Source: a virus. From it: a DNA stretch of 16,858 nucleotides. Both the position numbers and the translations under genes were made by a program. The stretch lies in UHGV virus genome UHGV-0362799; one strand, 5' to 3'. Every line of letters begins with the position of its first letter. The stretch's first letter is position 1. Below, piece by piece: positions 8,615 to 16,635 of this stretch. A model generated the notes under the pieces. The model saw nothing but the letters and a program-made list of their open reading frames with translations. It searched no databases and had not been told where the DNA came from.

Positions 8615-11461
8615 ATGAAATATGGTGCCATTATCACAGCGGCTGGCGCTGCCAGGCTGGCTGCGGCCACAACAGCAACAGGCCAGAAGCTGAACATCAC
8701 TCACATGGCCGTGGGAGATGGTAATGGAAATCTCCCGGAACCATCGGCCTCACAGGCCGCCCTGATCAATGAAGTCTGGCGCGGGACGCTGAATAAAATT
8801 ACACAGAACAGCAAAGCGCCAAATCAGGTGATTGCGGAACTGGTTATTCCTCCGGAAGTTGGCGGCTTCTGGATGCGGGAGCTGGGGTTGTATGACGACA
8901 GCGGAACCCTGATTGCCGTCGCCAATATGGCAGAAAGCTACAAGCCGTTACTCGCCGAAGGTTCGGGGCGCTCAATGGTCTGCCGCATGTTCATCATCAT
9001 CAGCGATATGAACGCGGTGAATCTGTCAGTGGACAGCAGCGTCATTGCCGCAACACAGGAATATGTTAACGAAGCCATCTCCGGCCTGCACCGCGCCATC
9101 ATTGATGATGTGGTTCTTCAGCATAAAGTTGTCCACGATATTGACTACGCCGGTATTTTTGACGGCGCGGATAAGATGAGTCAGGGGTTCTGTATCTGTG
9201 ATACGCCGCAGGGAACCAGAATGTTTCTGCATCAGCCTGTATCGGGTGGCGTAAGGATTGTTGAAACGACATTTAACCCTGACGGAGAAAACGAAAACCC
9301 GACGGTCATTTCGTTTTCTCCCGTTTTCGCTGATATTGGTCACCAGAGTATCGGGGCTGTATGTGAAGACGGTCGCGTGATGCTGTATACCCCGACCGCT
9401 GACGGCAAGGGTGTGAATATCATCAACTGGAATGGGGCTGACACCAGTCTGACAGATGTCACCCGTACGGAGATTTTCACCTCTGACTTTTTTACCGGGG
9501 ATGAAATTATAACGGTGGCATTGTCGGCAGACGGAAGCCTGTTGATTGTTCAGTCAAGTAATGAAGCCGTCCATCTTCATTACAACAGGGATGACCGCCG
9601 CACAGTTTATGTTTTCGATCGCGCTTCTCTGACGTTTAAACACCGGATTTATCTGTCCACCCAGTCAATGGTGTCGCAGGCATTTCAGGGGATGGCCAGC
9701 GATGGTCATTATCTGTTTGCTTATTACGGTTATACAGGCGTATTTCTGACTCACCGCATTGTTGTATATAACCTGTCAACGGGCGAAGTTGTCAGACAGT
9801 TCAATGTGGATGGCGTTCGTGCCAGGTATGGCCGCCAGAAAATGCTGGGGAATGCAGAGCTGGGGTATCCCGTTTTGCAGGAAGCCGAAGGGCTGGCTCT
9901 CCATAACGGAAAACTGTATCTGCTCGATATGGATTTCTGGTGTCAGACAGCCGATGTGGTTTCTTTTGAGGGGGCATACTTTGCAGCACGTGCAACAAAT
10001 TTTTCTGGCCGTTCCCCGGTGAATCCATCTTACTGGACGCCTACAGCATATGGAACGGCGGCTGCAACGAAATATGATGCCACGAAGTCTTATACGTGTG
10101 GCGTGGCGACAAAACGCAGCAAAGCTGTGGTTTCCGTGGAGGCTTACGACGGCACAGGCTATCTGGTGGACTCCGGCGTGGCGTTTCCTGACAGCCATGC
10201 CAGCCTTTTTCTGAGTCCCAATGCTGTAAATATTGCCCTGTCACCCAATGAAGACTTCCAGGTGGCAGCCTATGAGCAGAATCTGCGCTCGCATCGCCCG
10301 TTATTTGAGGTCAGAAAGGAGGCTCCGGATACAGACACTTCTGCTGCTGTTTTTCGTTTGTTCGGGGATGCGTTCCGAACCGGAGAATACACAGGCCGCT
10401 ACGTTCAGTGGAAACACCGACTGAACGCCGTGCACGATTGTCTGGAAATACGCGCTGACGTGGATTTGTTGAGCGGTGGCGGGATTAACCTTTACTCAAT
10501 GAACGATACTCAGTCGGCGGGACGCACAAGGCTTTATTGCACCGATGGCAGTGAAACCTGGTCTGTATTATTGAGTCCGGTCTCGCCGTCATTTCATCCC
10601 GACCAGGACAAGGCAATGAATCTGGGGTCATCGCCAAATCGCTGGAATGTGGCATACCTGCAGGGCGTGAATATTAAATCGGATGACGAAACCCAGAAGC
10701 GCATGACCATCAGCACCACGCTGAAGGCGGGAGCTTTCCAGGTATCAACAGTCGGGAATCTGGGTATTTATGACGATTCTGCTGACGCTTATGTAATTGC
10801 AGCCCGTAGTGACGGCACTGCATTCATGCAGATGGATACAGATATTAACGGTGCATTCCGGCCATCGGTTAACAATACCAGCGACCTGGGTGCGCCCAAC
10901 AAAGCGTTCCGGAGCGTGTATCTCTGCAACTCGCCGACCGTTGTGTCGGATGCGACGTTAAAGGATACACCGCGCGATGCGACGGCAGCCGAAAACGCGG
11001 CATTTGCAGAAATAGCACGGCTTCCGGGCGTGTGGCGCTGGTTACAGAGAATTGAGGAGGAGGGCGAGGACGCGCGTCTGCACGCCGGGCCGACAGTCCA
11101 GGCCGCGATAGCCGTGATGGAGAAACACGGTCTGGACTGGCGGAAATACAGCGCATTTTGTCTGGATTCGTGGGAAGCGGAGGAGGCACAGTACGAAGAT
11201 ATACCGGAAGAGTATGAAGATATTCCGGTTCAGCCAGCGATTTATTCGGATGAAGGGGAGCTGTTGAGCGGGACAACCCGTGTGCTTACCCGACAGGCGG
11301 AAAGGGTTCTTGTTCGCCCTGCAACCGAAGCAGGAAGCCGTTATCGCTTCCGGAAAGAGGAGCTTCTCTGGTGGTGTCTGCGTGCTGTTGTCAGCCAGGT
11401 GGATGCGCTGACAGAGAGTATCAGCGCACTTACCCGCCGTGTTGATTTACTGGAGGAATAA
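8615..11461 (+). CDS. H: Tail fiber protein (gpH family N-terminus; divergent central region; C-terminal intramolecular-chaperone-like domain)
   Basis: 948 aa. N-terminal about 160 aa carries the conserved gpH block ...MAVGDG...ELVIPPEVGGFWMRELGLYDDSGTLIAVANMAESYKP. The rest diverges from P2 H. The C-terminal about 170 aa begins SDATLKD and ends in a predicted helix, resembling peptidase S74-type self-cleaving chaperone domains. Confidence 0.9.
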   Translation: MKYGAIITAAGAARLAAATTATGQKLNITHMAVGDGNGNLPEPSASQAALINEVWRGTLNKITQNSKAPNQVIAELVIPPEVGGFWMRELGLYDDSGTLIAVANMAESYKPLLAEGSGRSMVCRMFIIISDMNAVNLSVDSSVIAATQEYVNEAISGLHRAIIDDVVLQHKVVHDIDYAGIFDGADKMSQGFCICDTPQGTRMFLHQPVSGGVRIVETTFNPDGENENPTVISFSPVFADIGHQSIGAVCEDGRVMLYTPTADGKGVNIINWNGADTSLTDVTRTEIFTSDFFTGDEIITVALSADGSLLIVQSSNEAVHLHYNRDDRRTVYVFDRASLTFKHRIYLSTQSMVSQAFQGMASDGHYLFAYYGYTGVFLTHRIVVYNLSTGEVVRQFNVDGVRARYGRQKMLGNAELGYPVLQEAEGLALHNGKLYLLDMDFWCQTADVVSFEGAYFAARATNFSGRSPVNPSYWTPTAYGTAAATKYDATKSYTCGVATKRSKAVVSVEAYDGTGYLVDSGVAFPDSHASLFLSPNAVNIALSPNEDFQVAAYEQNLRSHRPLFEVRKEAPDTDTSAAVFRLFGDAFRTGEYTGRYVQWKHRLNAVHDCLEIRADVDLLSGGGINLYSMNDTQSAGRTRLYCTDGSETWSVLLSPVSPSFHPDQDKAMNLGSSPNRWNVAYLQGVNIKSDDETQKRMTISTTLKAGAFQVSTVGNLGIYDDSADAYVIAARSDGTAFMQMDTDINGAFRPSVNNTSDLGAPNKAFRSVYLCNSPTVVSDATLKDTPRDATAAENAAFAEIARLPGVWRWLQRIEEEGEDARLHAGPTVQAAIAVMEKHGLDWRKYSAFCLDSWEAEEAQYEDIPEEYEDIPVQPAIYSDEGELLSGTTRVLTRQAERVLVRPATEAGSRYRFRKEELLWWCLRAVVSQVDALTESISALTRRVDLLEE

Positions 11462-11463
11462 TT

Positions 11464-11748
11464 ATGGACTTAACACCGGTGTTCCATGCACTTTGTGCGG
11501 TGGCCGCTCAGTTTCTGGTTGGTCTTTTTACCGGAAACTGGGCTTACGGAGCGATAGCCGGTTGTACGTTCTTCATTGCGCGTGAACACACCCAGGCAGA
11601 ATATCGCTGGATTGAAATGTTCGGGCATGGCAGGCGTATGAATATGCCGTGGTGGGGCGGTTTTGACCCACGAGCGTGGGATATGGCAAGTCTGATGGAT
11701 TTTGCAGTGCCGGTGGTGGCATGTCTGCTGGTCTGGCTGGTCGTATGA
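11464..11748 (+). CDS. Small hypothetical membrane protein, translationally coupled to the tail fiber gene
   Basis: ATG 3 nt after the H stop with excellent RBS GGAGGA 6 nt upstream; 94 aa with two hydrophobic segments (residues about 6-39 and 77-94) flanking a Trp/Arg-rich loop; followed directly by a terminator. No family recognised. Confidence 0.6.
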   Translation: MDLTPVFHALCAVAAQFLVGLFTGNWAYGAIAGCTFFIAREHTQAEYRWIEMFGHGRRMNMPWWGGFDPRAWDMASLMDFAVPVVACLLVWLVV

Positions 11749-11760
11749 CGTAGCAGGAAA

Positions 11761-11785
11761 CAGGGGGATTTGCCCCTGTTTTTTT
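11761..11785 (+). terminator. Rho-independent terminator ending the fiber operon
   Basis: CAGGGG-GATTTG-CCCCTG hairpin followed by TTTTTTT, 13 nt after the stop of the 94-aa gene. Confidence 0.7.
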
Positions 11786-11786
11786 G

Positions 11787-11930
11787 TTCAGAATGCAGCC
11801 TTCACCATTCGTCTCTAATCGTATTCAGTAATTCGCCCGCAGAAACAAACTAAAATTCATCCCCCGCATCACGCCACTGAAAGCAGACGGTAAACTCCAG
11901 ATTTTCAAACCAGCGTCAGAAGTATTTAAA
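11787..11930 (-). pseudogene. Degenerate remnant of a gpU 3' end (frameshifted fragment)
   Basis: About 70-80% nucleotide identity by eye to 12569-12705, the 3' end of the intact U gene. Reverse translation gives ...SAGELLNTIRD then a 1-nt deletion relative to U (...SAGELLNALKDKMPVAAF*). No start codon and no upstream part of the gene. Confidence 0.55.
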
Positions 11931-12151
11931 TGGCACCAGATGTAATATGCAGGCGATTAATATGGTGTGCTTAAAGATCATAAAAGCGGGCAACATTAAA
12001 ACTCCGGGCTGTGTAAATTACCGCCACTCATAATCAGAGATGAAAACAGAATTAAACTGGCGGAGTGGATTGTATACATAAAATAAGTTCAGTTGTTGAC
12101 TTTCACTTCCGTGAATTGATGAAGGTTATTACAATACATCGGTATGATCTC

Positions 12152-12176
12152 TCCTCCTTAAAAGGGAGGACTTTTT
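12152..12176 (+). terminator. Candidate intrinsic terminator
   Basis: TCCTCCT-TAAAA-GGGAGGA hairpin followed by CTTTTT. Confidence 0.45.
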
Positions 12177-12193
12177 AGAACGCAGAAATTATT

Positions 12194-12256
12194 TATAATC
12201 CCGTAGTGTTCTATACATGCAAACATTCTTTTTCCGCCCCGTGCGGGCTTTTTTTT
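12194..12256 (+). ncRNA. Candidate small transcription unit S1 (-10 TATAATCCC to short GC hairpin plus T8)
   Basis: TATAAT at 12194-12199 with AT-rich upstream region; GC stem 12236-12248 followed by T8 (12249-12256); predicted transcript about 50 nt; no convincing ORF or RBS. Confidence 0.25.
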
Positions 12257-12324
12257 GCCGCAAAGATACAGTAACAAACAAAATTGTAATCATGGCAATC
12301 AAAACACGAGAAACATTTTCAGCA

Positions 12325-12353
12325 ATTGCAATAACAAATTAAAATATTGCAAT
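12325..12353. promoter_or_regulatory. Two perfect ATTGCAAT palindromes spaced 21 bp centre to centre (operator-like); a third, imperfect, ATTGTAAT lies at 12283-12290
   Basis: ATTGCAAT at 12325-12332 and 12346-12353; the second overlaps the -35 of the S2 promoter; ATTGTAAT is centred 42 bp upstream of the first. Confidence 0.35.
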
Positions 12354-12376
12354 TGACAATCCCCGCTTAATATAAT
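12347..12376 (+). promoter_or_regulatory. Candidate sigma70 promoter (TTGCAA-N18-TATAAT)
   Basis: TTGCAA 12347-12352 and TATAAT 12371-12376; an alternative -35 TTGACA at 12353-12358 gives only a 12-bp spacer. Confidence 0.4.
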
Positions 12377-12382
12377 CCCTTC

Positions 12383-12444
12383 CGGAACATAGAACATTAA
12401 ATCTTCACACAATGCATGTTGCCCTCTTTATGAGGGCTTTTTTT
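12383..12444 (+). ncRNA. Candidate small RNA S2 (promoter to terminator, about 60 nt)
   Basis: Predicted start about 7 nt after the -10; ends at the GCCCTC-TTTAT-GAGGGC plus T7 terminator (12421-12444); only a 30-aa ORF without RBS runs through the terminator. Confidence 0.3.
12421..12444 (+). terminator. Rho-independent terminator
   Basis: GCCCTC / GAGGGC stem with 5-nt loop followed by TTTTTTT. Confidence 0.65.
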
Positions 12445-12537
12445 ATTTCCAGAATATCACCATTGCCATCATCGGGCGATTTATATATAGTCAGAATGTA
12501 TTGACAACATTTTGCTTCTTTTCCATGAAGGCCATAA

Positions 12538-12567
12538 GGGAGTGCTTTTTACACTCCCTCTTTTTTT
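12538..12567 (+). terminator. Rho-independent terminator (+ strand) abutting the U stop codon
   Basis: GGGAGTG-CTTTTTA-CACTCCC followed by TCTTTTTTT. In the - orientation the hairpin is followed only by UUAU, so it acts mainly on + strand transcription heading into U antisense. Confidence 0.65.
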
Positions 12568-12569
12568 AT

Positions 12570-13028
12570 TCAGAATGCAGCCACAGGCATTTTGTCTTTA
12601 AGCGCGTTCAGCAGTTCGCCCGCAGAAGCAGACTGAAACCGCTCTCTCATATCCTCATCACACCGCTGAAAGCTGATGGAAAACTCAATCTTTTTTGCCT
12701 TTCCGTAACGATCCAGCTCGGAGCGGGTGGTCTGTAATCCTGTAATCACGTACATTCCGTAAATCTGCCCCGTGCCATCAATCAGCGGCCAGGGACATCC
12801 GGTGTAGGCCTGGGTGTTCAGCAGTGTCAGTGACACCTCACCACCGGTAATTTCCGGGTACAACAGACCGGACAGCGTGATCTGATCGTCACCTGCGCCA
12901 ATATACTGCCAGGCCGCAGAGCGGTTAATGCGCTCATTTTTCACATGTCGCCATGTTTTGCTCTGCTGGATCTGCTGATGCGGAAGCGTTTTCAGCTCAA
13001 ACACAAACATGCCAAAAATCATCATCAT
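12570..13028 (-). CDS. U: Tail protein U (gpU family)
   Basis: 152 aa, starts MMMIFGMFVFELKTLPHQQIQQSKTWRHV...LSGLLYPEITGG, recalled as the gpU family signature; RBS AGGAGA upstream; directly downstream of the tape measure gene. Confidence 0.85.
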   Translation of the reverse strand: MMMIFGMFVFELKTLPHQQIQQSKTWRHVKNERINRSAAWQYIGAGDDQITLSGLLYPEITGGEVSLTLLNTQAYTGCPWPLIDGTGQIYGMYVITGLQTTRSELDRYGKAKKIEFSISFQRCDEDMRERFQSASAGELLNALKDKMPVAAF

Positions 13029-13041
13029 AATTGCGTCTCCT

Positions 13042-16000
13042 TTAGTCCCTGTCGCGGAAGCTGTTCATGCCTGTACGCGCCTGTCTGCGCATCTCTTCGC
13101 GGACGGCCTCACCAACCAGTTTTGCCAGTTCGCGCGGATTCTGTGTGTTGACGTTGTGCAGATGTACATGTATCTCACCGGAAAACGCAGCCGCCTGCGG
13201 CTGTGGCGCAGCTTCCCTTCTGGCCGCATCCGGTCGCAACGGGGGCCGGATAGCCTCCGCGACGGGAGCGGAAGCCATTACCGCCCCCGTCATACCTTCA
13301 GCCACGTTACGCGGCTGCGGCAGTGCGGAGACCTGGCGGGCCACGTTCACAACGGGAGCGGGGGCACTCACCGCAGGGGTGGGCAGTACACCTGTCAGTC
13401 TCTGCCAGAGCATTGTCAGTGCATCCGTCAGCCCTACGCCCGCCGATACCGCCTGCACCGTCCGGACAACCTGCGGTGCTTTCCACTCGCCGTGAATGAT
13501 TTCGGATCCGGGCAGATTTTTGAAAACAATATCGCCGGGACCGACGCGCCTGCGTGTTTCCTCAAGAAGCCCGCCGGTGTTGCTGGCGGTTTTCTGTATC
13601 CCCTGCCGGAACCATGCCTCATCCAGCGGGGATTTGCTGCCGGGTTTGCCGACCGGATTGTCCGCCGTTCCCCTCACCTCTCCGGGAACAGCAGGGGCAG
13701 GTACTGCGGGTTTATTGTCACCGTTGTTTTCCGCTGCATCTGATGACCACGACCATGGTTTCTGCACCATTTTTTTCTGTGCAGGATCCCACTCCCACGC
13801 AACCGGCGCTTTTTGTGTGGCCTGTTTTGCGGCGCTCTCCTGGAGTTTTTGCGTCTCCTTCTGTGCCTCTTTGATGCCGTCCGGGATGACACCCAGCCAC
13901 TTCAGCACGGTACCGAGGCCATCAAGGAGCAGCGTCAGCGGCCCCAGCACAATGTTCTGAATGACCCACCCCAGCGTTTTCCCGAACGACTCCCCTGCAC
14001 TGGTGCATTTGTCGAGCGTCTCTTTTGAGGCGTTCGCAGGTTCAAGCAGGCGGGTGAACCACTCCCACACGGCTTTGATGCCGTCGCCAATCAGCCCGAA
14101 CACCGGAGCCAGCGATGCAAAGGCTTGCCGCAGCGGTTGCAGCGCCTCCCACACTCCGGCAAAAAAGCCGGAAAAAAACGCGCTGATCTGATCCCAGTAT
14201 TTCCACACCAGAACCGCGCCGCCCACCAGGGCGGCAACAATCAGCCCGACCGGACTGAACAGCGCCCCCAGTGCGCCCCCCAGTACCGACACCGCCCCCG
14301 TGACCAGCCCCCACAGCGCAGGCAGCCCCGTCAGGCGCAGTGCCATCGCAGACACAAGCCGGACAGCACCACCAATGCCACCGCCCCCCGTCAGCAGCCC
14401 CAGTCCCAGTTGCAGTTTTGCCAGTGGCCCCGCAATCAGCCCGAGCGTCAGTGACAGCGCACCGAACGTGGAAGACAGCGCCAGAACACTACCGCCGGTC
14501 AGCACCAGCCCCCTGACCAGCGCCTGGTGCTCTCCGACCCATTCGCGCATCCGGGTCATCCACGCGCTCACCGTCTGAACCAGCCCGCGCAAATCCTCCG
14601 TCACTGTACCGAAGATGTCCGTGCGTAGCCCTGAGAACGCACCACTCAGCGCCTGAACATCGCCGGAAAGATTACCGCGCAGTGTCTGCCCCATGCGGTC
14701 TGCCACGCCGCTGACATCACCCAGGTTGTCACGGACATCAGCCAGCGCCCTCAGGAACTGCGGGATCTGGTCAACGGAAAGGTCTTCAACGGGTGTGCCG
14801 AACAGCGCAATGGCCGTGTTCGCCCGCTCTGCCGGGTCACGGATGGCCAGCAGTGCACGGGCGGTCACCTGCATCGCCTGACGAGCAGTGCTGCCTCCCT
14901 GTGCAATGGCAGCAGACACCCGCTCAGCATTCAGGCCGAGAGTCTCATACGCTGAGACACTGGATTTCGACATATCCGAACCCCGGATGCTGAACTCCTT
15001 CACGGCATCGCCGGTTTTGTCCAGCGCAAACTTGCCCTGCTTTGCCATCTCAACCAGCAGACTCATTGTCTCGCTGCCGGTGAAGCCCATGTTGCGGAAG
15101 TGGGTGGAATACTCGTGCAGAATTTCCGGCAGTTCATCGCGCATTTCAGCGGACATACGCTGCATCCCTGCCGTCATCAGGTTAGTAGCCTCGTCACTGC
15201 TGGCAGCCAGCCCGTTCTTCATCATGATGGCAGCGGCCTGAATGCTCTGCGGCACATCAACACCAAAGACGGTCCGCATATCCAGCGCACGACGGCTGAT
15301 GCGCTCCAGTTCCCGGTCGCCGGTGTCGCCCAGTGCGCCGAGCGTACTGCGTACCGCACTCACAGCCTCCGCAGCACCGGCAAAATCAGCGAGACCGTCA
15401 GCCTGTATGTTACGAATAATGTGGGTGTAACGTGCGCCATCCTGTGCGCCTTCCCCCGAACCGGCTGCGATGACCGCACCGTGCTGTTCGGACTCCATCG
15501 CCGGAGCCATCATACGCTGCGCCGCATACAGGCCGCCTGTACCCGCCGCCATCGCCACAGCCCCTGTGTTGCGCAGTTTTTCCGCCTGTGCCTTCGCGGC
15601 CTCATAGCGGCTCTGTGCCTGCGTCACGCGAGCCAGTGCCTGCCGTTCGCGCTCGAGCTGCTCGTTGTACTGCTGTGTACGGCGAACGGCACTTTCAATG
15701 GTGCGGCTGCTGCCGGAAAGCAGAATGCCGTGTTTGCGCATTTCCCCTGCCGCCGCCTGAAGTTTTTCGCGCTCACGCGTGCGCAGCTCGTTCAGGCGCT
15801 CAAGCCGTGCAGACAGCGCCGTCATCATCTCCCGCTGCTTTTCAGAGAGGGTGTTGCCGTTCTGCTCTGCCTTTCGCAGTCCGGCGAGCCTCTGCTCCGC
15901 GCGGGCAATCTGTTCGCGGTATTTACTGAGATTTCCGGCGGCACGTTCGAACACCTTCGACTGCCTGTCGAGCGTCTGTATGTTGTCCTGCGTCTTCTGA

Positions 16001-16137
16001 AGGGATTCAGTGAGAGCGCCCACCTGACGGCGGGCGTTTTCGGTCGGGCGTGTCAGCCGGTCAATTGCGCCAAAGCTGACACGAATATCAAGGGATTTCA
16101 CTGTTGCGGACTCCGCTGCGTTGCGCCGCCCGCTCAC
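13042..16137 (-). CDS. T: Tail tape measure protein (gpT family)
   Basis: 1031-aa ORF, GTG start; coiled-coil-rich N-terminus, Gly/Ala-rich hydrophobic central block and Pro/Ala-rich C-terminus, typical of tape measure proteins; position E/E'-T-U. Confidence 0.9.
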   Translation of the reverse strand: MSGRRNAAESATVKSLDIRVSFGAIDRLTRPTENARRQVGALTESLQKTQDNIQTLDRQSKVFERAAGNLSKYREQIARAEQRLAGLRKAEQNGNTLSEKQREMMTALSARLERLNELRTREREKLQAAAGEMRKHGILLSGSSRTIESAVRRTQQYNEQLERERQALARVTQAQSRYEAAKAQAEKLRNTGAVAMAAGTGGLYAAQRMMAPAMESEQHGAVIAAGSGEGAQDGARYTHIIRNIQADGLADFAGAAEAVSAVRSTLGALGDTGDRELERISRRALDMRTVFGVDVPQSIQAAAIMMKNGLAASSDEATNLMTAGMQRMSAEMRDELPEILHEYSTHFRNMGFTGSETMSLLVEMAKQGKFALDKTGDAVKEFSIRGSDMSKSSVSAYETLGLNAERVSAAIAQGGSTARQAMQVTARALLAIRDPAERANTAIALFGTPVEDLSVDQIPQFLRALADVRDNLGDVSGVADRMGQTLRGNLSGDVQALSGAFSGLRTDIFGTVTEDLRGLVQTVSAWMTRMREWVGEHQALVRGLVLTGGSVLALSSTFGALSLTLGLIAGPLAKLQLGLGLLTGGGGIGGAVRLVSAMALRLTGLPALWGLVTGAVSVLGGALGALFSPVGLIVAALVGGAVLVWKYWDQISAFFSGFFAGVWEALQPLRQAFASLAPVFGLIGDGIKAVWEWFTRLLEPANASKETLDKCTSAGESFGKTLGWVIQNIVLGPLTLLLDGLGTVLKWLGVIPDGIKEAQKETQKLQESAAKQATQKAPVAWEWDPAQKKMVQKPWSWSSDAAENNGDNKPAVPAPAVPGEVRGTADNPVGKPGSKSPLDEAWFRQGIQKTASNTGGLLEETRRRVGPGDIVFKNLPGSEIIHGEWKAPQVVRTVQAVSAGVGLTDALTMLWQRLTGVLPTPAVSAPAPVVNVARQVSALPQPRNVAEGMTGAVMASAPVAEAIRPPLRPDAARREAAPQPQAAAFSGEIHVHLHNVNTQNPRELAKLVGEAVREEMRRQARTGMNSFRDRD

Positions 16138-16635
16138 GCCAGCTCATCACCTCGACGAGAGGCATTGAGAATATCTCGCCGGGCGACCAGTTAAACACGA
16201 CTGCTATATCGGCGACCAGTTCTTCAACGTTGTCGAACTTCGCCAGCGTGATTACGCTTCCATCACCGCCACGGACGGTTTCGCAGACTCCGTGGGAGCC
16301 AAAAAATTCGCCACCAGAGTAGCCAGCGCCACGAAATCACCGGTGGACAGTGACTGAATTTCTGCCAGCTTCAGGCGTGGTGCGGTCACGCGCGAAAGCA
16401 ATGTCATCACCGGGTCTGTTTTGAGGTTCAGCACCTCAATCAGCGACAGCCCGCGCAGTGAGCCTGCCTGGCGGATTTCCTCGCCAATCTCCACATAGTC
16501 AATAACGCGTTCGCCACGCACCACCGGGCAGGATAACTGCACACCCGTTTTTTCCTCTGCGGCTTCTGCGTTATCCACGGTGTTTTCCTCTGCAACGATT
16601 TCGTCTTTCATGATGTCATCTTTCTTTGCTGCCAT
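16088..16635 (-). CDS. Tail assembly chaperone frameshift product E+E' (-1 programmed frameshift)
   Basis: Slippery heptamer T_TTT_TTG on the - strand (+ coords 16300-16306) inside E. The -1 frame continues 70 codons (GSHGVCETVRGGDGSVITLAKFDNVEELVADIAVVFNWSPGEIFSMPLVEVMSWRERAAQRSGVRNSEIP) to a TGA at 16088-16090, overlapping the T start by about 50 nt as in P2 E/E'/T. Confidence 0.6.
16252..16635 (-). CDS. E: Tail assembly chaperone (gpE family)
   Basis: 127-aa ORF upstream of T with RBS AGGAGAAAG; contains the P2-type slippery site; acidic N-terminal extension (true start may be the internal Met 9). Confidence 0.8.
   Translation of the reverse strand: MAAKKDDIMKDEIVAEENTVDNAEAAEEKTGVQLSCPVVRGERVIDYVEIGEEIRQAGSLRGLSLIEVLNLKTDPVMTLLSRVTAPRLKLAEIQSLSTGDFVALATLVANFLAPTESAKPSVAVMEA

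Follow-up and report, generated by a model that had tools for sequence, protein, structure and literature searches.

What occupies the gap between the two convergent tail operons of the P2-like Escherichia coli prophage represented by virus genome UHGV-0362799, and could it hold genes for regulators? The DNA analysed here, a single stretch of 16,858 nucleotides (nt) that we refer to as the window, was traced to a P2-like prophage of E. coli through the RefSeq annotation of its relatives and through Pfam, the P2-like assignment resting on gpU, the P2-type capsid, ogr and cox. On the plus strand, the baseplate genes V, W, J and I are followed by a tail-fibre gene (8615-11461) and a gene of 94 amino acids (aa; 11464-11748); on the minus strand, gpU (12570-13028), the tape-measure gene, E/E', and the tube and sheath genes converge on them. 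The 820-bp gap that separates these two blocks contains three tandem units, S1, S2 and S3, which we read as predicted genes for short regulatory small RNAs (sRNAs) carried by the prophage as a moron, a reading to which we give an even chance. The observations that bear on it are the sequence anatomy of the units, their block-wise distribution, their status as an insertion, their lack of conserved open reading frames (ORFs) and their pattern of conservation.

Anatomy of the three units

Each unit consists of a putative sigma-70 promoter followed by a Rho-independent terminator, all on the same strand. A preliminary description of the region had recognised two of them; a third, S3, is also present (promoter 12463-12491, terminator 12537-12567). 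The cassette and its parts are as follows.

12188-12569, plus strand: AT-rich non-coding cassette holding S1, S2 and S3 (GC drop relative to the flanks; missing from the loci of gpU relatives in other genera; invariably a single block)
12172-12199, plus strand: S1 promoter (-35 TTTTTA, weak here; 16-nt spacer; -10 TATAAT followed by CCC)
12206-12256, plus strand: predicted S1 RNA, ~50 nt (variable 5' end, conserved ACAUGCAAACAUUCUUU, hairpin 12233-12247, U8 from T8 at 12249-12256)
12347-12376, plus strand: S2 promoter (TTGCAA, 18-nt spacer, TATAAT followed by CCC; conserved A/T-rich stretch upstream; 10/12)
12383-12444, plus strand: predicted S2 RNA, ~62 nt (variable 5' end of 14-16 nt, then 46 nt beginning UUAAAUCUUCACACAAUGCAUG..., hairpin 12421-12437, U7 from T7 at 12438-12444)
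12463-12491, plus strand: S3 promoter (TTGCCA-17-TATAGT; 10/12 in the window, 9-10/12 in other haplotypes)
12498-12567, plus strand: predicted S3 RNA, ~70 nt (small 5' hairpin, 8-bp terminator stem 12537-12559, U7 from T7 at 12561-12567)

Promoters were scored as matches, out of 12, to the sigma-70 consensus, a measure of likeness that is no proof of activity, and RNA starts were placed ~7 nt past the -10 box. Scored in this way, the two best promoter-like sites of the 16.8-kb window are those of S2 and S3 (10/12 each), each with a hairpin and at least seven T residues 45-70 nt downstream. The -10 motif that S1 and S2 had been said to share, TATAATCCC, does occur exactly twice in the window, on the plus strand at 12194-12202 and 12371-12379, where 0.02 copies are expected and none of 200 shuffles reached two. 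The GC hairpin and T-run described after each motif are likewise there, and the transcripts of about 50 and 60 nt then predicted correspond to our ~50 nt for S1 and ~62 nt for S2. In both units, and without variation among the haplotypes, CCC directly follows the -10 box (12200-12202 and 12377-12379); a GC-rich discriminator of this sort has been linked to promoter sensitivity to guanosine tetraphosphate (ppGpp) and DksA.

The predicted S1 and S2 RNAs fold as a single-stranded body followed by the terminator hairpin, and the fold of S3 is the most stable of the three (z-score -2.8). The U-tails after the GC hairpins number eight residues in S1 and seven in both S2 and S3. As to a U-rich stretch, S1 has one immediately 5' of the hairpin (UUCUUU), S2 has only part of one (AUGUU), and in S3 it is found farther upstream. 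An Hfq-binding module has been described as a Rho-independent terminator with a long 3' U-tail and a preceding U-rich stretch (Ishikawa et al., 2012, as cited in PMC4104026). The predicted layout of a single-stranded body, GC hairpin and tail of 7-8 U is that of an Hfq-type base-pairing sRNA. If the promoters are active, the prophage would produce discrete RNAs of ~50 nt (S1), ~62 nt (S2) and ~70 nt (S3) with no dependence on the late operons, and these RNAs may bind Hfq and act in trans on host mRNAs or core sRNAs.

How closely S1 and S2 are related is a separate matter. In local alignment their likeness is confined to the -10 box with CCC and to the 3' arm of the terminator with its T-run, and paralogy was rejected on this basis; hence the earlier term "related" is apt for these two elements and weak beyond them. 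The two units had also been credited with partly complementary motifs, and GTTCTAT in S1 does face ATAGAAC in S2 in the window. The match is lost in the other four haplotypes, which carry GTTCTAC with CAGAAAA (the haplotype of sequence type 131, ST131) or GTTATAC with ATAGAAC (the others), and a 7-mer of this kind is near chance expectation. The proposal of candidate sRNAs at a convergent tail-operon junction stands as a prediction, without the mutually complementary pair that had been part of it.

S1 deserves separate description. It is absent from the list of promoters returned by the scan of the window and is listed in relatives, where its promoter scores 11/12 with TTTACA (viral contig L010) or 10/12 with TTTTCA (ST131). 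The base of its stem reads UU in the window, UC in the closest relative, and GC in other haplotypes, which have TTTTCA or TTTACA as the -35 box. Compared with that closest relative, the locus of strain H1827/12 (L001; 99.6% identity), the window shows three differences over 851 bp, of which two fall in functional elements of S1: TTTTTA versus TTTTCA in the -35 box (12172-12177) and UU versus UC at the stem base (12230-12233). Both are C-to-T changes and both weaken S1 in this strain. The S1-S2 spacer (12256-12346) includes a second, weak promoter-like site, TTTTCA-18-TAAAAT, at 12316-12345.

A protein-free insertion with a patchy distribution

Is the cassette extra DNA, or is it part of the junction in P2-like phages at large? 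The comparison set comprised 43 loci with relatives of gpU, drawn from other genera such as Serratia, Salmonella, Enterobacter, Citrobacter, Pantoea and Symbiopectobacterium. Most of the enterobacterial loci have the same convergent junction, in which gpU faces either the tail-fibre-assembly gene tfa or a gene for a Hin-type invertase; the intervening gap is mostly 40-150 bp long with ~50% GC in the relatives from other genera, versus 378 bp where the cassette is present (L010). The cassette itself has a GC content of 0.35-0.38 against ~0.52 in its flanks, amounting to a block of ~380 bp with ~36% GC. When the 43 loci were searched for the complete cassette and for S1, S2 and S3 one by one, blastn-short and nhmmer profiles returned terminator-like hits only and no homologue of any unit.

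Among 5,426 complete E. coli genomes, 72 contain the segment 12003-12570, always at this locus. The locus of strain H1827/12 and nine other complete genomes are 99.6% identical to 11750-12600, and a further set of genomes, O25b:H4-ST131 isolates included, is 94% identical to it. The S1-S3 cassette has no match in 50,697 phage records or 72,556 plasmids; when 11906-12570 was compared with the phage records by blastn, only the remnant of the tail-fibre (H)/tfa junction described below was matched, and nothing within S1-S3. In scans for exact cores, six IMG/VR contigs and five metagenome contigs each had S1, S2 and S3, and no unit was found without the others; most hits to 17-18-mer patterns in these viral and metagenome scans were set aside as chance matches in unrelated contigs. 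All copies of the cassette collapse to about five haplotypes.

Judged by composition and by comparison with relatives, the stretch 12188-12569, AT-rich and protein-free, is an insertion lying between the tfa 3' end and the convergent gpU. Morons are a feature of temperate phages (Juhala et al., 2000, cited in PMC4104026). Like a classical moron, the cassette is extra DNA between genes that are adjacent in relatives, it is AT-rich, it has sigma-70 promoters and terminators of its own, and it lies downstream of tail-fibre genes; because extra DNA, own promoters and terminators and deviant composition come together here, we apply the name to it. It differs in that a classical moron encodes a protein, whereas the cassette has no conserved ORF and carries three promoter-terminator units instead of one. 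In P2, the slot between genes G and FI holds Z/fun.

Absence of conserved coding sequence

Could the units nevertheless be genes for small proteins? Two plus-strand ORFs overlap them, at 12217-12342 and 12412-12504, and both read through the T-runs, as had been reported; the second has the 30 aa then given, and the first has 41 aa rather than 42. In other haplotypes both are frameshifted by variation in T-run length. Every ORF that reaches 20 aa and overlaps a unit is frameshifted or deprived of its start in other haplotypes, and none is conserved.

These data bear on the suggestion, made in the preliminary description, that the units may be what is left of type I toxin-antitoxin loci, in which a small hydrophobic toxin mRNA is paired with an antisense or overlapping RNA. 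The size and the promoter-to-terminator layout of the units resemble such loci, a minus-strand ORF of 37 aa (12189-12302) has a short hydrophobic start followed by basic residues, and a Hok/Gef gene is present elsewhere, at the end of the ST131 prophage. Against this, the 37-aa ORF has lost its start and gained a stop in every other haplotype, its hydrophobic part spans only ~10 residues, and by eye it shows no ribosome-binding site; the plus-strand ORFs are interrupted as described; the units neither overlap nor converge and are complementary in this haplotype only; and no small hydrophobic toxin ORF is conserved on either strand across haplotypes. Searches against Sok, Sib, Rdl, IstR, OhsC and other Rfam families were negative as well (see below). 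We regard a type I origin as very improbable.

Signs of constraint

As a measure of constraint we used the share of variable alignment columns across haplotypes, with the following values.

S2 3' part and terminator: 9%
S3 promoter: 13%
S3 body and terminator: 17%
S1 body and terminator: 20%
gpU third codon positions: 32%
S1-S2 spacer: 34%
tfa pseudogene: 42%

None of the three -10 boxes varies between haplotypes, not even that of S2, whose promoter region has 50% variable columns and retains TTG of the -35 box together with the whole -10 box in every haplotype. Stem cells are 98% paired across haplotypes, and two compensatory changes occur, both in S3: G-C to C-G in the terminator and C-G to U-A in the small upstream hairpin. 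Indels within the cassette are limited to 1-nt changes in length (T-runs and two other single-base indels). Within S2, the first 14-16 nt exist in three versions, CGGAACAUAGAAC.. and CUGCAACCAGAAAAA.. among them, while the next 46 nt are nearly invariant; S1 shows a milder form of this pattern. These signals, read from the alignments, all point in the same direction.

Taken together, the lack of a conserved ORF, the invariant -10 boxes, the canonical terminators, the low variation relative to neutral proxies and the retention of the cassette beside a decaying gene are the reasons why we uphold the units as candidate sRNA genes.

A tail-fibre recombination scar beside the cassette

A different answer to our opening question is suggested by the left part of the gap (11763-12187), which is a recombination scar with the following features.

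11763-11784, plus strand: intrinsic terminator of the tail-fibre/orf94 operon (terminator scan; its T-run and downstream sequence repeat 12556-12582 as direct repeat D4, 93%)
11788-11910, minus strand: gpU' remnant, the 3' end of a second gpU gene (direct repeats D2-D4 against 12556-12694, 79-93%; in all scar-bearing haplotypes)
11916-11961, plus strand: 3'-terminal remnant of an older tail-fibre (H) gene (match to the tail-fibre/tfa junction)
11962-12187, plus strand: tfa pseudogene (ORF list; alignment to relatives with longer or intact tfa)
12152-12176, plus strand: terminator-like hairpin (12152-12170) with T5, within the decayed tfa 3' end and outside the cassette

The gpU' remnant was recognised because 11774-11905 repeats 12556-12694 in direct orientation (79-93%), the latter segment comprising the T-run and the last ~40 codons of gpU. 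Next to it, 11916-12002 matches, at ~80%, the junction of tail-fibre and tfa genes in P2, SfMu and hundreds of E. coli prophages. The tfa pseudogene keeps N-terminal codons (MVCLKIIKAGNIKT...) and a decayed C-terminal part, with ~350 bp deleted internally, and different lineages have lost different large internal pieces of the gene; by eye, one of these deletions appears to lie between two copies of ACAACGAAAT (L006 versus L003). The hairpin at 12152-12176 is found only in the window and ST131 haplotypes, its place being taken by coding sequence in the others. In L010, an intact Tfa of 187 aa (Caudo_TAP, phrog_136) ends just before the S1 -10 box.

From these arrangements we reconstruct the scar as the product of a tail-fibre replacement, in which a new fibre gene arrived with orf94, a terminator and ~125 bp of a foreign gpU 3' end, and was fused with the final ~45 bp of the previous fibre gene, after which tfa decayed. 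Since relatives have a longer tfa and L010 an intact one immediately before the S1 -10 box, the ancestral order is reconstructed as H, tfa, S1, S2 and S3, with gpU converging from the opposite strand. The C-terminal S74 chaperone domain of the present fibre fits with the old tfa becoming dispensable after the swap. That the cassette came through the replacement intact while the adjacent tfa decayed provides indirect evidence of selection on the cassette.

The same scar raises the main rival possibility, that the units are nothing but stacked terminators, namely that of the late H-tfa operon and others left by repeated swapping of tail fibres, shielding the convergent operons from each other, with chance TATAAT-like "promoters" and with small RNAs, where made, as functionless by-products. 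Stacking of this kind is seen immediately upstream, where the orf94 terminator, the gpU' and H' remnants and the tfa pseudogene follow one another. In relatives with intact tfa the S1 terminator lies ~60 nt past the tfa stop and so must also end the late operon; the S3 T-run together with the gpU end is duplicated at 11774-11800, which makes the position of this terminator ancestral; and promoter-like words in the region are only ~2-fold enriched over shuffles. Other features fit this explanation poorly. The spacers have no homology to tail-fibre, tfa or gpU sequences elsewhere in the 5,426 E. coli genomes and in the phage and plasmid collections; the surroundings of the three -10 boxes vary, the boxes themselves do not; conservation extends beyond the stems into the bodies of the predicted transcripts; all the terminators face the same way, none being a good terminator for the minus-strand gpU operon; and the cassette is complete in the scar-free contig L010, where intact tfa, S1-S2-S3 and gpU follow in order. 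We consider stacked terminators possible, while leaning against them. Should the units prove not to be expressed, the locus would be a mere recombination scar with stacked terminators.

RNA families, candidate partners and points of doubt

Which partners might such sRNAs have, and how well does the sRNA reading bear scrutiny? Several results weigh against it. The covariance search proposed in the preliminary description produced no family: no Rfam match reached the gathering threshold in the whole window; a cmscan run over the 4,227 Rfam families, with the cut-off at E <= 10 in the window and at E <= 1 in two other haplotypes, found no AgvB, AsxR, Esr41, Sok, Sib, Rdl, IstR, OhsC or other prophage sRNA family; and permissive scans of the three haplotypes gave only sub-threshold, terminator-driven noise (SpF51, RyhB, OmrA-B, Trp leader). 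The longest helices that the units could form with the rest of the window and with the whole ST131 prophage equal shuffle expectation, and complementarity to GcvB, Spot 42, CsrC, GlnZ and EsrE is not beyond chance. S1 is the weakest unit in the window, with a poor -35 box (TTTTTA) and a UU stem base, and the -35 box of S2 is reduced to TTG in three of five haplotypes. AT-rich foreign DNA is, moreover, often silenced by H-NS. About five haplotypes from one phage lineage make the statistics of conservation and covariation thin, and recombination mosaicism could mimic patches of low divergence. Finally, the S1-S2 spacer contains invariant runs of 10-11 nt (ATTGTAATCA, AAACATTTTCA) that none of the explanations accounts for.

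Two host sRNAs were considered as targets of a sponge, against backgrounds of simple shuffles and, for Spot 42, of 4,186 genomic windows. GcvB was suggested by CACA(A)UGCA, a CA-rich motif that S1 and S2 both have; the duplex energies did not improve on those of shuffles, the 9-bp helix between S1 and GcvB is broken in the ST131 haplotype, and the candidate was rejected. Nucleotides 10-27 of Spot 42 can pair with S2 of this haplotype over 10 bp and with S3 over 14 bp including G-U pairs. S3 ranks at the 41st percentile and S2 at 2% of the genomic windows, the S2 pairing is lost in ST131, and, as many sRNAs could have been tried, we do not regard the pairing as beyond chance; Spot 42 was rejected too. 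Searches for published text containing the S1-S3 core sequences found none, and a search for literature on sRNAs of P2-like or ST131 prophages returned nothing relevant.

Instead of host partners, the units might act in cis on the phage, as antisense to read-through from the gpU tail operon, thereby modulating late expression or superinfection. STnc6030 of prophage BTP1 offers a precedent, in that a prophage antisense RNA targeting tail genes gives superinfection exclusion (PMC12197685). No good intrinsic terminator follows gpU in the minus-strand tail operon, so that read-through RNA would be fully complementary to S3, S2 and S1. On the other side, no unit overlaps coding sequence, S3 ending 3 nt short of the gpU stop codon, and complementarity in trans to the rest of the prophage is at chance level, as given above; the latter also leaves the earlier suggestion that paired sRNAs could regulate the convergent operons unsupported. 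We think action in cis improbable.

Comparison with known prophage sRNAs

The reading of S1-S3 as sRNA genes finds its closest models in AgvB, AsxR and EcOnc03 (RF02702, RF02703). The sRNAs at moron sites of lambdoid prophages of enterohaemorrhagic E. coli (EHEC) are abundant, Hfq-bound and 51-60 nt long, with a conserved 3' part of ~42 nt and a variable 5' part of 14-18 nt (Tree et al., 2014, PMC4104026); AgvB acts against GcvB and AsxR against FnrS, as "anti-sRNAs" (PMC4104026). S1-S3 resemble them as clustered, predicted genes for short RNAs at a prophage moron site, each with its own predicted promoter and Rho-independent terminator. In S2, 46 nearly invariant nucleotides follow 14-16 variable ones, so that a haplotype-variable 5' end would be joined to a fixed 3' part much as in AgvB and AsxR; S1 may follow the same plan less clearly. 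The Rfam searches show no homology of sequence or structure to S1-S3, and none of the complementarity of S1-S3 to GcvB or the other sRNAs compared is above chance. Furthermore, the EHEC genes lie in lambdoid prophages downstream of PR' and form convergent pairs, whereas S1-S3 lie at the tfa/gpU junction of a P2-like prophage, in tandem on one strand. The resemblance, drawn by analogy, is one of architecture and putative function and not of homology.

[quoted passage not shown] S1-S3 share with them the intergenic position in a prophage, the patchy, strain-level distribution limited to Escherichia and the existence of lineage variants; PasB, in addition, is located amid structural genes of the phage and occurs in extraintestinal isolates. 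The Pas sRNAs are present in RefSeq phage genomes, whereas S1-S3 are without a match in the 50,697 phage records (an indirect comparison, not one with the Pas sequences themselves), and S1-S3 are predicted genes.

A third likeness concerns S1 alone. sRNAs of the DapZ and MicL type have a promoter of their own in or near the end of a coding sequence and a terminator in common with the upstream mRNA. In relatives with intact tfa, the -35 box of S1 lies within the last tfa codons and its terminator is the first after tfa, so that the 3' end of S1 would also be that of the late-operon mRNA. In the window, by difference, tfa is a pseudogene, and S2 and S3 are free-standing.

A more specific form of the sRNA reading is that the cassette is a three-gene sRNA moron of a P2-family prophage in lineages of extraintestinal pathogenic E. 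coli (ExPEC), part of ST131 among them, in which a fixed Hfq-binding 3' scaffold carries 5' seeds exchanged between phage lineages, such that the haplotypes re-wire different host sRNA or mRNA parts. We offer this as speculation that is rather unlikely to hold. Were it true, the idea of the anti-sRNA or sRNA moron would extend from lambdoid to P2-like phages, in a new slot, the tfa/gpU junction. The wider interest is that prophage sRNAs re-tune core regulation in pathogenic E. coli, AgvB conferring a colonisation advantage, and that the cases known so far belong almost entirely to lambdoid prophages of EHEC and EPEC. If expressed, S1-S3 would be, to our knowledge, the first such cassette for P2-like prophages, in a subset of extraintestinal lineages that includes ST131, and the natural seed variants would make the hunt for targets straightforward.

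Features of the surrounding prophage

One further feature borders the cassette directly.

12570-13028, minus strand: gpU tail gene, the last gene of the convergent tail operon (PF06995 Phage_P2_GpU, E = 7e-40; RefSeq "phage tail protein")

The Peptidase_S74 domain of the 948-aa tail fibre (8615-11461), of the endosialidase-type intramolecular chaperone kind, occupies residues 778-840 at its C-terminus. The 94-aa ORF directly after it (11464-11748) is hydrophobic-looking and without a Pfam match, and corresponds to phrog_1443 (function unknown; E = 9e-56). Relative to the classical P2 gene order, the tail module at 12570-16635 (sheath, tube, E/E', tape measure, gpU) is an inverted block, which is how gpU comes to converge on the tail-fibre genes. 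Relatives from Serratia, Salmonella, Enterobacter, Pantoea and other genera commonly show the same inversion, and in several of them a gene for a Hin-type DNA invertase lies at the junction. The H1827/12 prophage with the closest copy of the cassette (L001 7300-13997) is degraded, with an IS421 insertion and a truncated replication gene, and its portal gene directly adjoins the cassette region. In the ST131 copy, the Hok/Gef family toxin gene (L094 13418-13558) adjoins ogr and lies outside the window.

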